Shown here piece by piece: positions 39,805 through 45,936 of a DNA stretch of 64,000 nt. The DNA is taken from contig JACKFJ010000003.1 of NCBI GenBank assembly GCA_020632535.1, positions 230,166 to 294,165 on the forward strand. The letters run 5' to 3'. Position 1 is the first letter of the stretch, and each line of letters opens with the position of its first letter. This stretch comes from Candidatus Omnitrophota bacterium (lineage in GTDB: Bacteria > Omnitrophota > Gorgyraeia > Zapsychrales > JANLHA01). A model generated the notes under the pieces. The model worked only from the letters and a program-made list of their open reading frames with translations, was not told the origin of the DNA and ran no database searches. The position numbers were made by a program, and so were the translations under genes.

Positions 39805-41571
39805 ATGAATTCACAACCTTTTAACCGCATACACAACTACTCTACGGCTTTTTTTCTCATCATTGTCATTGTGCTTTGCCATGGTCTAAGTGTTAAAGCA
39901 CAATTTATGGTCGACGATTTTGATTATTTGCCCCAAGGCCAAAAACAAGCAATCTATCAAAATCTACCCGATCTTTTCCTCAAGTCAGAAGTCCATCATT
40001 ACAATCCTTTGAATATCGCACTCAATATTTCCTTGTTCAAAACGTACAAATCCGCCTCAAGCCTTTACGCAATCAATCTCTTGCTATTTTACGGAAATAC
40101 TCTTTTACTTTTTATTCTTGTCACACGTTTAACGCAAAATTTAGAAATAGGCGCGCTGACTGCAATACTATTCGCTGTTCACCCTGTAAATGCGGAAATG
40201 TTAAGCCATATAACATTAAATACTGTAATGGTCTGTGCCGCATTTCTGCAGACTAGTATGATTTTATTCTGGCGCCACATTACCTCTCCCCAAAAGACAG
40301 TAAAAAGTATTTTACTAAGCCTCATCCTTTTCCTATTTGCTCTATTGTTTCTTGAAACAGCCTTACTTTTCCCTATCTATCTAAGCCTATTGTGCCTTGT
40401 AAACAAAAATGACCGCTGGCAAAATTTGCGTCAGACAATACCATTCTGGATCACTGCATTTTTATATTTTGGCCTTTGGTGTTTGATGGCTGGTCCAGCA
40501 GGGCAATGGAACGATAAAATTCAGCATTTACAATTTTCTTTTGAAAGTTATACCGCAACATTAAGTTTTTTACTTCAGTGGTATTTTCAAAATTTAATTA
40601 TCCCAAATAATTTTGTGTTAATAAAGAATTCTCCGGCACTATCTCATTCAATACTCTTTTGGAATAGCGCATTGCTATTAGGGATTTTTTTGACAATTTG
40701 CCTATTATGGTTCTGGCGAAAGAATATAAAGAAATTTGCGTTGGCATGGTTTATCTCAGGTTTTACTTTTATGCTCCCAGCAAGCATCGTCCACGCATAC
40801 AGCATGGGCATTGTCATTGAACCTCATTGGTTTTATTTTTCATCGATGGGATTCTTTATGCTTTTTGCGTTATCTCTCAATGATCTTAAACCACGGATTC
40901 AAACAATACTTTATCGCTCACTTATATGTGTCCTCGTAATTTTCTGGGGATTAACATCTTTTCGACACCATGTCATTGCACGTACCGAAATCAGTTATCT
41001 TGAATATTGGTTAAAAAACAGTCCGAACAATAGACTCCCAGCCTCAAAACTCGGCCTTTTATACGGTTCAAATAATGGCCTTACCATTCCAGCTGAATTA
41101 ATTTCCGATATGGACAATCAAACAGATTACTTTATAAAAGCGAATCACTATAGTGAATCCATTGATCTTTTAGAAAAACTTGTAAAGCAAAATCCAATGA
41201 ATCCTAAGCACAATATATGGGATGATAGATTATCCGCTTTATACTTAAAAGTAGGCGAGACTGTCACTGCTGAAAATCGATTTAAACTGCGTTTTACCAA
41301 AAAACTGCCTTTAAAAGAGTACCTTATGCTGGCTCAATTGTTAGAACAGCTTGAAATCCGTGAAAAAGCTCTTACTGTCCTTGATCAGGGCCTGATCTAC
41401 TATCCACAACAGGTGGATTTAGTCTATCTTAAAGCCGTAATTCTCGCTAACCAAAACCGCTTTTCTGAAGCAGAATCGCTATTAAAAGCACAAAATCACG
41501 TAGAAAAAGACGAACGCTACTTAAAATTATTAAAGGATATTGAAACAATAAAATTAAAGACACAAAAGTAA
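39805..41571 (+). CDS. TMTC-like (DUF1736-type) GT-C fold glycosyltransferase with C-terminal TPR domain
   Basis: 588 aa. About 11 predicted TM segments. First-loop FMVDDFDYL acidic motif. LFAVHPVNAEMLSHI resembles the TMTC/DUF1736 HPxxxE block. TPR-like C-terminus. Confidence 0.65.
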   Translation: MNSQPFNRIHNYSTAFFLIIVIVLCHGLSVKAQFMVDDFDYLPQGQKQAIYQNLPDLFLKSEVHHYNPLNIALNISLFKTYKSASSLYAINLLLFYGNTLLLFILVTRLTQNLEIGALTAILFAVHPVNAEMLSHITLNTVMVCAAFLQTSMILFWRHITSPQKTVKSILLSLILFLFALLFLETALLFPIYLSLLCLVNKNDRWQNLRQTIPFWITAFLYFGLWCLMAGPAGQWNDKIQHLQFSFESYTATLSFLLQWYFQNLIIPNNFVLIKNSPALSHSILFWNSALLLGIFLTICLLWFWRKNIKKFALAWFISGFTFMLPASIVHAYSMGIVIEPHWFYFSSMGFFMLFALSLNDLKPRIQTILYRSLICVLVIFWGLTSFRHHVIARTEISYLEYWLKNSPNNRLPASKLGLLYGSNNGLTIPAELISDMDNQTDYFIKANHYSESIDLLEKLVKQNPMNPKHNIWDDRLSALYLKVGETVTAENRFKLRFTKKLPLKEYLMLAQLLEQLEIREKALTVLDQGLIYYPQQVDLVYLKAVILANQNRFSEAESLLKAQNHVEKDERYLKLLKDIETIKLKTQK

Positions 41572-41605
41572 TACTTTACATCTTTAGGTACAGGATCAGC
41601 TGAGG

Positions 41606-41634
41606 TTGACATTCCCTATTTGACATGTTATACC
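41606..41634 (+). promoter_or_regulatory. putative promoter of the pilin leader transcript
   Basis: TTGACA (41606-41611), 17-nt spacer containing a TG at 41626-41627 (extended -10 type), TATACC (41629-41634). Confidence 0.35.
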
Positions 41635-43898: not shown

Positions 43899-43917
43899 GC
43901 ATAAAAATATTTTGCAA

Positions 43918-45936
43918 TTATTTTTGATTTAACATTTGTTTCGCTTGGTCAATATTTCTTTTAAATTCATGTTCATTTGGAAAATGCTGCATACCTTTTT
44001 TCCAAATCATAACTGCACGATTAAGATCACCTTGATTTGCGATCATAACGCCAGCAAGTAAACAAAAATCTTTATTGCGCGGATACTTTACAAGGCCTTG
44101 TTCTAAAACATGCCGAGATTGATCCGGGAGCTGAAATGCTTGAAAAAGCTGAGCAAGAATCACAAAAGAATTAACACTGTTATCTTTATTAAATAAATCC
44201 TTGATGGTTTTCTCTGAAATTGCTGGGCTCTGATACAAATATTGCAAAACCGCTAATTTCGCATAAACACTTATTAGATCGACACCACGTAAATCCTTTA
44301 AAGTTAACTGTTCGAGAAATGGTATTGCCTTTACCTCTTGCTTGATAATAATGTAAAGGTCGGCAAGATTGATCATACTTAGAAGATCATCAGCATTATG
44401 GGTAATCGCTTTTAAATAATTCTTCTGTGCACCGTCATAATCCTCCTCAAGAGCATTAATACGACCCATAATCGAATACGCCAATGATTGATGTTTATCA
44501 ATCTGTAAAGAACGATTAAGCAAAGCTTTAGCATTTTTAAACTGATTCATATCCAAATAAATCGAAGCCAAGGTGCAATATACATGCGCAGGTTTAAAAA
44601 CCGCATAGGGTGAGTAAGAAAACTCTCTTAAATAACGCTCGTAATACGCGAAAGCTTGCGAATAATTCTTTTCTTTAAGCGCTATCTTAGCAACGGCAGT
44701 TAAAGGCACAGGATTCGCAGATATACTGAGCCAATACTCACTGTAACTTTTTTCAGTTTTCGCAACAACATTGATCTTTTGTGTATTTATAAATAAATAA
44801 GTACACAGAATAAAAAGAAGAACATAAAAAGATCTTTGCCAAACTTTATCACGAATATCGATGAGATACATCCCAATAAGAATAAAAAACCCCATCGAAC
44901 CCAAATAAAACCAGTAAGGCTCAATAATCAAACCCATTTCCGGGTGAATAAGACTTCCCGGTGGCAAGAAAATAAATCCGGACAAAAACCATATCCCGGC
45001 AAAGCAATGACTTGACGTTGAAAAGAACTTTTTACGTTGAATATAAAAAAGCGAAATGAGTAACAACAATGCTAAAACGCAAATAACAGATTGCAAAAGA
45101 TTTAGCGGCTGTATCGCATAAATCCAAATCCCGTTGATCGGGATCAATAATTTCTGCCAATACCAAAACAGTAACGCAAGAAGTGAGCCCGTAAAAGTTA
45201 CCGGCGTAAGATCAAAATAAGTAATCTTTTTAAAAAATCCATCCGACAAAGAGTTCCCTTGGCTCAGAGAATACCAAGCAATAAAGAAAACTGATGCCAT
45301 AACTATAAAAGGCACGACTTTTACGATTGCCTGCTTGAAATTTATTCGGCGAACAAGCCATGCCCACAAAAATAAATAGAGAGGCAGAATCCACGACGTT
45401 TCCAAAGTCAAAAATGAAACCACCGCACAAGCTAAAGCGACAGCAAGATTTCGTTTTCGACTCGTCAACAAATAACGGTCATAATAAATCAAACTGAGTT
45501 GAAAGAATACTGCCGCAAACAAAACCGTACTAAAAACAATTTGATTTACAATTTCAGCATTAAGGGGATGAATACAAAAAAGAACTGCCGTCCATAAAGC
45601 GATGTTTAAATTCTTCGTCATCGCATAACACATGTGATGCAAAAAACGACAGTTCAAATAAAAAAGGACAAGATTAAAAACATGAAAGGGCACTACGTTT
45701 TTACCAAACACTTTGAATAATGCATCATTTAAAAGAATATTCAAAGGATTGAAATGTTGATTTTCACTGCGAAAAAGCACGTCGAAAATCGAAGAATATT
45801 GCGGATGCAGAGTCCGATCAATAAAAATAAAATCGTCTAATTTAAAGGCACTCAGAAGTGTAGGGGAATACGTGAGTATACAGAGAATACCCAAGAAGAC
45901 ATCTGGCCGGGCGCAAAAGCTGAGAAATTTCTTCAT
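43918..45936 (-). CDS. TMTC-like (DUF1736-type) GT-C fold glycosyltransferase with C-terminal TPR domain, paralog of 39805-41571
   Basis: 672 aa. FKLDDFIFI first-loop motif and LFCIHPLNAEIVNQI, both parallel to the + strand paralog. Multi-pass membrane domain. Clear TPR units in the C-terminal ~250 aa. Confidence 0.65.
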   Translation of the reverse strand: MKKFLSFCARPDVFLGILCILTYSPTLLSAFKLDDFIFIDRTLHPQYSSIFDVLFRSENQHFNPLNILLNDALFKVFGKNVVPFHVFNLVLFYLNCRFLHHMCYAMTKNLNIALWTAVLFCIHPLNAEIVNQIVFSTVLFAAVFFQLSLIYYDRYLLTSRKRNLAVALACAVVSFLTLETSWILPLYLFLWAWLVRRINFKQAIVKVVPFIVMASVFFIAWYSLSQGNSLSDGFFKKITYFDLTPVTFTGSLLALLFWYWQKLLIPINGIWIYAIQPLNLLQSVICVLALLLLISLFYIQRKKFFSTSSHCFAGIWFLSGFIFLPPGSLIHPEMGLIIEPYWFYLGSMGFFILIGMYLIDIRDKVWQRSFYVLLFILCTYLFINTQKINVVAKTEKSYSEYWLSISANPVPLTAVAKIALKEKNYSQAFAYYERYLREFSYSPYAVFKPAHVYCTLASIYLDMNQFKNAKALLNRSLQIDKHQSLAYSIMGRINALEEDYDGAQKNYLKAITHNADDLLSMINLADLYIIIKQEVKAIPFLEQLTLKDLRGVDLISVYAKLAVLQYLYQSPAISEKTIKDLFNKDNSVNSFVILAQLFQAFQLPDQSRHVLEQGLVKYPRNKDFCLLAGVMIANQGDLNRAVMIWKKGMQHFPNEHEFKRNIDQAKQMLNQK

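Follow-up and report, generated by a model that had tools for sequence, protein, structure and literature searches.

The 64-kb window analysed here (the whole stretch of DNA under study) derives from a metagenome-assembled genome of Candidatus Omnitrophica/Omnitrophota and contains a type IV pilus locus, which open reading frame (ORF) and Pfam/NCBIfam annotation places at positions 31987-47283. Within this locus, the main pilin genes are bracketed by two inverted genes, A and B, whose products combine a polytopic membrane domain with C-terminal tetratricopeptide repeats (TPRs). Predicted structures, sequence profiles and gene neighbourhoods suggest that A and B are inner-membrane glycosyltransferases of the GT-C fold, which would probably be dedicated to the surrounding pilus as periplasmic pilin O-glycosyltransferases resembling TfpW of Pseudomonas aeruginosa. 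A further GT-C/TPR protein, C, is encoded 2.4 kb from B. The features of the pilus locus and its right-hand border are:

31987-32322 (+), minor pilin-like gene of the PilX_N type, first in the pilus cluster (Pfam PilX_N, E 2.7e-6)
32472-34016 (+), pilM-like gene (Pfam PilM_2, E 1e-13)
34020-34667 (+), pilO-like gene (Pfam PilO, E 7e-7)
34664-35221 (+), unannotated 185-aa gene following the pilO-like gene, for which the family scan found no family
35218-36789 (+), PilQ-like secretin (Pfam Secretin, E 2e-37, with Secretin_N and STN)
36791-38503 (+), assembly ATPase of the PilB/GspE type, with MshEN as its N-terminal domain (Pfam T2SSE and MshEN; identical gene in locus L080)
38530-39777 (+), platform protein PilC/GspF (Pfam T2SSF)
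39805-41571 (+), A, 588 aa, putative GT-C/TPR paralog of B (TPR_19; D37/D38, HP and both loop glutamates kept)
41656-41739 (+), riboswitch-like aptamer of the cyclic di-GMP (c-di-GMP)-I type (GEMM-I, GGC variant) in the major pilin leader (Rfam RF03167)
41919-42341 (+), major pilin of 140 aa, whose globular part is rich in Ser/Thr (N_methyl, E 4e-7; ComP_DUS, E 2e-8)
42450-42860, 42883-43254 and 43245-43898 (+), three more prepilin genes (N_methyl or IV_pilin_GFxxxE; weak PilV/GspI-like matches)
43918-45936 (-), B, 672 aa, putative GT-C/TPR paralog of A, convergent with the pilin cassette (AF2, Foldseek and hhalign)
45949-47283 (-), ICMT/PEMT-like polytopic membrane methyltransferase, 444 aa (Pfam ICMT, E 6e-7; PEMT, E 7e-6)
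47417-47489 (+), tRNA gene between the ICMT-like gene and rsmE (Rfam tRNA, 66 bits)
48289-50127 (+), C, PMT_2-type GT-C/TPR protein with a TTG start (or a GTG start at 48331) and an overlap with the end of rsmE (Pfam PMT_2 and TPRs)

A starts 27 nt after pilC and is therefore probably co-transcribed with the assembly genes. The last pilin gene and the end of the convergent B gene are separated by 19 nt, and 12 nt separate B from the ICMT-like gene, its upstream neighbour on the same strand. Intergenic distances in the range of 12-27 nt imply that the genes are coupled in operons. A scan for sigma-70 promoters and terminators gave a signal no higher than shuffle expectation. B is 100% identical to the NCBI entry “hypothetical protein H6754_05505” of Candidatus Omnitrophica.

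A and B are true paralogs, with a similarity far beyond chance: BLASTP aligns 399 aa of their membrane domains at 33% identity (E 1e-59) and a second segment in the TPR region (E 1e-10). The earlier note had described two proteins of this size and orientation with a common membrane-TPR architecture, two parallel pairs of motifs and a pilin cassette between them, all of which were recovered. A holds QFMVDDFDYL and LFAVHPVNAEMLSHI, B holds FKLDDFIFI and LFCIHPLNAEIVNQI, the first motif in each protein containing the conserved acidic DD, and four ORFs with prepilin N-terminal methylation motifs (starting at 41919, 42450, 42883 and 43245) lie between the two genes. The C-terminal parts match the Pfam family TPR_19 in A (E 6e-8) and in B (E 8e-12, together with several other TPR families). 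From the AF2 model and alignment, A would carry about five repeats and B about nine, a difference in length which suggests that the two proteins have different acceptors or form a heterodimer.

Family models recognised little else. In A and B, TPR families were all that the Pfam and NCBIfam scans picked up. The DUF1736 model (PF08409) matched neither full-length protein at E<=0.1 and neither membrane domain at E<=10. The isolated membrane domains matched no Pfam family at all at E<=10, PMT_2 and PMT included, and a profile built from them gave 0 matches to PDB sequences at E<=10. The same Pfam/NCBIfam scans detected no Wzy_C domain in A, B or C. Placement in the GT-C fold superfamily comes from two independent lines, a structure model and sequence profiles. 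The AF2 prediction of B reached a pLDDT of 87 at full length, and of 84 with a pTM of 0.87 for the membrane part. When this membrane-only model was compared with the PDB by Foldseek, the best 28 matches were all GT-C enzymes, including AglB, STT3, ArnT (5f15, TMq 0.51), Pmt1/2/4, EmbA/B/C, DPY19, ALG3 and AftA; the full-length model returned TPR proteins alone. For the profiles, the bridge was P0018, a distant family member (phmmer E 1e-7 to B) whose relatives carry PF08409 (DUF1736), PF13231 (PMT_2) or PF02366 (PMT) and in some cases the JGI name “protein O-mannosyl-transferase”. The A/B profile aligned with such DUF1736/PMT_2/PMT TPR proteins in hhalign with a probability of 100% (E 4e-43), and a profile of the A/B clade only, run against membrane-only targets, still reached 99.8% (E 2.5e-30, 371 columns). 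By their predicted fold A and B thus belong to the GT-C superfamily, and at the level of profiles they are placed as homologs of the DUF1736/PMT_2 GT-C/TPR proteins.

The name “TMTC-like”, under which A and B had been introduced in the earlier note, therefore stands as regards fold and profile homology and does not as regards the DUF1736 model and four signature residues, discussed below. The resemblance to structures of GT-C enzymes, PMT and ArnT among them, was borne out by Foldseek. Detection by family models held for TPRs in A, B and C and for PMT_2 in C, and failed for DUF1736 and PMT_2 in A and B.

The AF2 models contain 11 transmembrane helices followed by the TPRs. An odd number of helices, together with a basic N-terminus on the inside, predicts a cytoplasmic N-terminus and a periplasmic location for both the DD loop and the TPR domain. 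The family is large: with a threshold of E<=1e-3, an exhaustive HMMER search with the membrane-domain profile collected 96,846 clusters (50% identity), and with one of E<=1e-30 it still collected 6,180. Among 42 close members (A, B and 40 relatives), the 25 most frequent of 53 Pfam families were all of TPR type or related helical-repeat families, essentially with no match on the membrane domain, and DUF1736 was not among these 25. Public databases annotate relatives of A and B as “TPR repeat protein”, and JGI names some of them “TadD” or “PilF”. The TPR parts also gave weak matches to PilW (TIGR02521, E 8e-9, 35 bits against a cut-off of 154) and to the PilF structures 2ho1 and 2fi7. A pilotin-like role based on these matches was considered and rejected, as they reflect generic repeat similarity far under the family cut-offs.

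Eisenhaber et al. defined seven TMTC motifs, M1-M7 (DD, SHKSYRP, RxD, KE(T/Q)xxT, DW, ERxxY), and in models of the TMTC enzymes the M4 Lys and M7 Arg touch the donor phosphate while the M5 Asp binds the metal (PMC7801869). These motifs were placed on A and B via an hhalign alignment and an hmmalign census, and residue numbers below are those of B. The acidic pair of the first loop (D34/D35, corresponding to D37/D38 in A) is invariant in the clade alignments, and in the census D34 is found in 140 and D35 in 135 of the 142 closest 50%-identity representatives. D34, D35, H61, P64, H123, P124, N126 and E339 are invariant in the clade and E179 nearly so, all of them in loops predicted to be periplasmic, which argues for a working active site. 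Conservation of D34, D35, E179 and E339 extends across hundreds of relatives. In terms of TMTC motifs, the parts kept are the DD of M1, a remnant of M2 (H-(Y/F)-N-P), the HP...E segment and the glutamates of M4 (E179) and M7 (E339). Other conserved basic positions, candidates for contacts with the donor phosphate, are H61, H123 and K237, with a His at 341 in A.

The association with pilins was followed in loci of relatives, obtained by a pattern scan with the clade alignment in one genome per species and annotated by script (79 loci, designated by L numbers). The order pilQ-pilB-pilC-A-pilins-B-ICMT-like recurs, fully or partly, in at least six related Omnitrophota, and the arrangement is retained in every close relative with sufficient flanking DNA. 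L002, L003 and L004 contain ICMT-B, pilins and A, and also pilC-pilB-pilQ in L003 and L004, where the contig extends that far; L007 and L008 contain pilQ-pilB-pilC-A. Adjacency of pilC and A is kept in L003, L004, L007, L008 and L082, and the ICMT-B pair in L001-L004 and L080-L082. In L082, a 228-kb Omnitrophota contig encoding a 77%-identical ortholog, the order is the same and includes C, rsmE, recA and htrA. More distantly, L062 (a distant member of Omnitrophota) and L025 each possess a pilM-pilQ-pilB-pilC cluster in which a single GT-C/TPR gene stands amid the pilin genes or directly behind them; in L062 it sits between pilin genes.

A similar bracket is found in Acidobacteriota. Three loci (L049, L056 and L069, at ~9.8-17.1 kb within each) have a GT-C/TPR gene, four tandem near-identical pilins of 161-165 aa, a second GT-C/TPR gene and then an ABC transporter. 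Both paralogs (~625 aa) match the family model with E 1e-26 to 1e-34, and the 10 kb around them are free of genes for pilus assembly. This is an independent recurrence with unrelated pilins and ties the enzymes to the pilins and not to the assembly machine. It is very unlikely that only gene order has been conserved, A, B and C being general envelope glycosyltransferases that stand beside pilus genes by chance. In favour of this view, synteny would be expected in any case among relatives as fairly close as L001-L008 and L080-L082, and a housekeeping gene, rsmE, and a tRNA gene separate C from the cluster. However, GT-C/TPR and pilin genes are paired likewise in the distant L062, in L025 and in Acidobacteriota, where the pilins are different, and the short gaps around A and B imply operon coupling. 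Co-occurrence with pilin clusters, which had been put forward as a test of the glycosylation proposal, accordingly stands for related Omnitrophota and these Acidobacteriota and does not hold across most of the 79 loci.

The L082 locus further contains, between B and the pilin cassette (12048-13838, +), an extra 596-aa polytopic membrane protein that is not in the window. This protein resembles neither A nor B, and Pfam gave no informative match, only a faint C-terminal TPR.

As for the putative substrates, the C-terminus of the first pilin (41919-42341) reads ...QQTTATITRSGTTAFAGIN, and a conserved pilin peptide is ...ITRSGTTAFAGIN. The Ser/Thr-rich tail of the major pilin quoted in the earlier note is thus present. 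Ser and Thr together make up 22-29% of the globular parts of the pilins (25-29% for the major pilin) versus 11% in housekeeping proteins of the window. The major pilin is highly conserved in L002-L004 and L082.

The closest counterpart in function among known enzymes appears to be TfpW, of P. aeruginosa group IV (Pa5196/PA7), a 646-aa GT-C protein with 11 transmembrane helices and, at its C-terminus, a large periplasmic TPR domain (bioRxiv 10.1101/2020.04.19.049825). Its DDx motif in periplasmic loop 1 is essential, ArnT is its best structural template, its gene adjoins pilA, and it adds D-arabinofuranose oligomers to Ser/Thr of the pilin (bioRxiv 10.1101/2020.04.19.049825). Compared with TfpW by description only, A and B share its size class, predicted topology, loop-1 DD, ArnT-like fold, C-terminal TPRs and pilin adjacency. 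In addition, Y-x6-P in loop 4 of A and B (Y259...P266) recalls YX6PFX7P of TfpW, although the spacing differs (Y-x6-P-x10-P). The systems also differ in organisation: two convergent paralogs are found here, whereas TfpW is encoded by one gene downstream of pilA. The D-arabinofuranose (DprE1-type) donor genes that accompany some tfpW loci were not found among the scanned window ORFs (19.2-24.4 kb unscanned), and the conserved partner is an ICMT-like methyltransferase, in contrast to the tfpX-like gene, which is missing here.

Other systems are less similar. TMTC1-4 (CAZy GT105; DUF1736 and TPR; protein O-mannosyltransferases) likewise have an 11-transmembrane GT-C domain followed by TPRs on the lumenal/periplasmic side, and share with A and B the M1 DD, the Y-x-P remnant of M2, HP...E and the glutamates of M4 and M7. 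However, the DUF1736 model misses A and B, and M3, the M4 Lys, M5 and the M7 Arg are replaced, the TMTC side of this comparison being the published motifs and bacterial DUF1736 proteins. The replacement of signature residues means that “TMTC-like” holds at superfamily level only. With ArnT/PMT_2 (GT83-like) and PMT (GT39) enzymes, A and B share the GT-C_A fold, their first-loop acidic pair aligns with the “SDD” of the neighbouring PMT_2-type protein C, and C itself passes the PMT_2 threshold, but A and B match neither the PMT_2 nor the PMT model and are without the MIR domains of PMT. ArnT, which modifies lipid A, is devoid of a TPR domain. The PglL/TfpO (PilO) O-oligosaccharyltransferases are also polytopic, act on the periplasmic face and glycosylate pilin Ser/Thr, but belong to another family (Wzy_C / O-antigen-ligase-like); tfpO, too, adjoins pilA (bioRxiv 10.1101/2020.04.19.049825). 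By analogy, TfpW would be a better functional comparator for A and B than TMTC, and the preferred label should be “TfpW-like, divergent DUF1736/PMT_2-superfamily GT-C”.

Under the most probable explanation, in which A and B glycosylate the pilins of the surrounding pilus, prepilins would enter the inner membrane and the TPR domain would dock their Ser/Thr-rich globular part. The invariant first-loop Asp pair could then activate a Ser/Thr hydroxyl, to which A and/or B would transfer, in the periplasm, a sugar from a polyprenyl-phosphate-linked donor. The two paralogs might serve different pilins or sites, or form a heterodimer like PMT1/PMT2 and EmbA/EmbB. The co-transcribed ICMT-like methyltransferase would probably, by pure conjecture, methylate or otherwise modify the lipid-linked donor or the glycan. 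In this scheme the acceptor (pilin), the O-glycosylation chemistry, the donor and the roles of the TPR domain and of the methyltransferase are all inferred.

Several observations weigh against pilin glycosylation by A and B. First, Ser/Thr richness is common among pilins and hence proves nothing; the composition of the pilins is compatible with glycosylation, not diagnostic of it. Second, no gene for donor-sugar synthesis, a polyprenyl-phosphate glycosyltransferase or a flippase was found among the scanned ORFs of the window, again with 19.2-24.4 kb unscanned. Third, about 65 of the 79 loci, as well as the contexts of P0013-P0016, are not near pilin genes, so that the pilin linkage is a property of particular clades and not of the whole family. 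Fourth, parts of the TMTC motifs are replaced: the M3 Arg/acid pair by F135/T137, the M4 Lys by L178, the M5 Asp by I272 and the M7 Arg by P340. Since these include residues that in the TMTC/ArnT models bind the donor phosphate or the metal, donor chemistry could differ or activity could be reduced.

The third point bears on the acceptor. It is unlikely that A and B are active GT-C enzymes whose acceptor is not pilin and is another periplasmic or exported substrate produced along with the pilus (secretin, alignment proteins, a secreted adhesin) or a glycan or lipid of the envelope, in the manner of ArnT and Emb. Such a substrate would fit the GT-C fold with its conserved DD, the presence of the lipid- or glycan-directed ArnT, Emb and AftA among the nearest solved folds, the non-pilus contexts of most relatives, and the position of A, which lies in the assembly operon after pilC and not strictly beside a pilin. 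It fits poorly with the Acidobacteriota pairs, which bracket four pilin genes in the absence of nearby assembly genes, with the single GT-C/TPR gene of L062 sitting between pilin genes, and with the fact that the TPR-bearing GT-C enzymes of known function, TMTC and TfpW, act on proteins.

The replaced residues bear on activity itself. With the canonical Lys and Arg proposed to bind the donor phosphate and the M5 Asp lost, A and B might be inactive GT-C relics that serve the biogenesis of the pilus as TPR scaffolds or chaperones (pilin stabilisation, secretin assembly), in the way of the TPR lipoproteins PilF/PilW/Tgl/TadD, a role that the weak PilW and PilF matches and the JGI names “TadD” or “PilF” on some relatives would suit. 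This is quite unlikely. The DD pair, H61, H123, N126, E179 and E339 are invariant or nearly so, which is atypical of pseudoenzymes, and the PilF/PilW matches are of the generic repeat kind. Moreover, P340 is present in 135 and W342 in all 142 of the 142 closest representatives, usually with His at 178 and 341, which speaks for a subfamily-wide alternative motif and not for decay; in the canonical set of the census, K178 is present in 112 of 119 and R340 in 92 of 119 sequences. On these sequence features, A and B are best assigned to a branch of their own within the DUF1736/PMT_2 GT-C/TPR superfamily, with “E-P-(H/Y)-W” as its mark, and are not strict TMTC look-alikes.

The locus shows that in Omnitrophota, an uncultured phylum whose cells are very small and possibly host-dependent, GT-C/TPR enzymes are fixed partners of the type IV pilin genes; in some Acidobacteriota, too, they are partners of pilin genes. 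Pilin glycosylation shapes adhesion and the stability of the pilus, as well as its recognition by phages or the immune system. To our knowledge, it has so far been known mainly from enzymes of the PglL/TfpO type and from the single GT-C example TfpW. By this analogy, the kind of system (TfpW-like) is already known, and it is the A/B branch of the GT-C family that is divergent and unannotated. The locus provides a first functional handle on a family of ~97,000 clusters (50% identity) publicly annotated only as “TPR repeat protein”, and the putative donor-binding residues of this family, different from those of TMTC and ArnT, offer a concrete biochemical target.

The major pilin gene is preceded by a 347-nt leader with a full-length match to RF03167 (c-di-GMP-I-GGC), which scores 55.2 bits against a gathering threshold of 59 (E 1.5e-12 to 5e-11). 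The aptamer is followed by a stem that resembles a terminator (GCCTATTC...GAATAGGC) and by a run of T, with the hairpin at ~41760-41805, and conservation of the whole leader is high across four related loci (L082, L003, L004 and L002). The neighbouring PilB has an MshEN domain, which is of a c-di-GMP-binding type. In the ICMT-like protein, the methyltransferase domain is C-terminal and is preceded by ~300 residues without a family match; a comparison of the protein with PDB sequences gave 0 matches. A bolder and rather unlikely proposal would combine these elements. The E-P-(H/Y)-W motif of loop 5 and the His/Leu in place of the loop 3 Lys would define a large bacterial GT-C/TPR subfamily with a rebuilt donor site and a non-canonical donor or chemistry, and its pilus-linked clades would form a two-enzyme, possibly heterodimeric, module that acts with the ICMT-like methyltransferase to produce a methylated or unusual pilin glycan under c-di-GMP riboswitch control.

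C, the third GT-C/TPR protein, PMT_2/ArnT-like, that had been noticed close to the cassette, is recognised as such by family models: PMT_2 scores 46.8 bits (cut-off 26.1, E 5e-12) over residues 82-231, together with strong TPR matches, and C is thus taken to be a bona fide PMT_2-type GT-C/TPR protein. The “SDD” of C was aligned by hhalign with the first-loop DD of A and B with a probability of 42%, and C had 0 matches to PDB sequences. C is syntenic in L001, L003, L005 and L082, where the L082 ortholog also has PMT_2, and is missing at the corresponding locus in the more distant Omnitrophota L062. Of all parts of the finding, the connection of C with the pilus is the weakest. At the tRNA gene (47417-47489), the pilus locus gives way to the rsmE-C pair.

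The remaining scanned ORFs of the window encode housekeeping biosynthesis (amino-acid, folate and fatty-acid genes in the flanks), DNA repair (uvrA, recA) and similar functions. Directly before the pilus cluster, at 30198-31742 (+), lie ExbB/TolQ-like and ExbD/TolR-like genes, together with a 144-aa ORF that has no annotation. They are preceded, at 27740-30232 (+), by a gene for an 830-aa protein that consists nearly entirely of TPRs, with YfiO/BamD-like matches.

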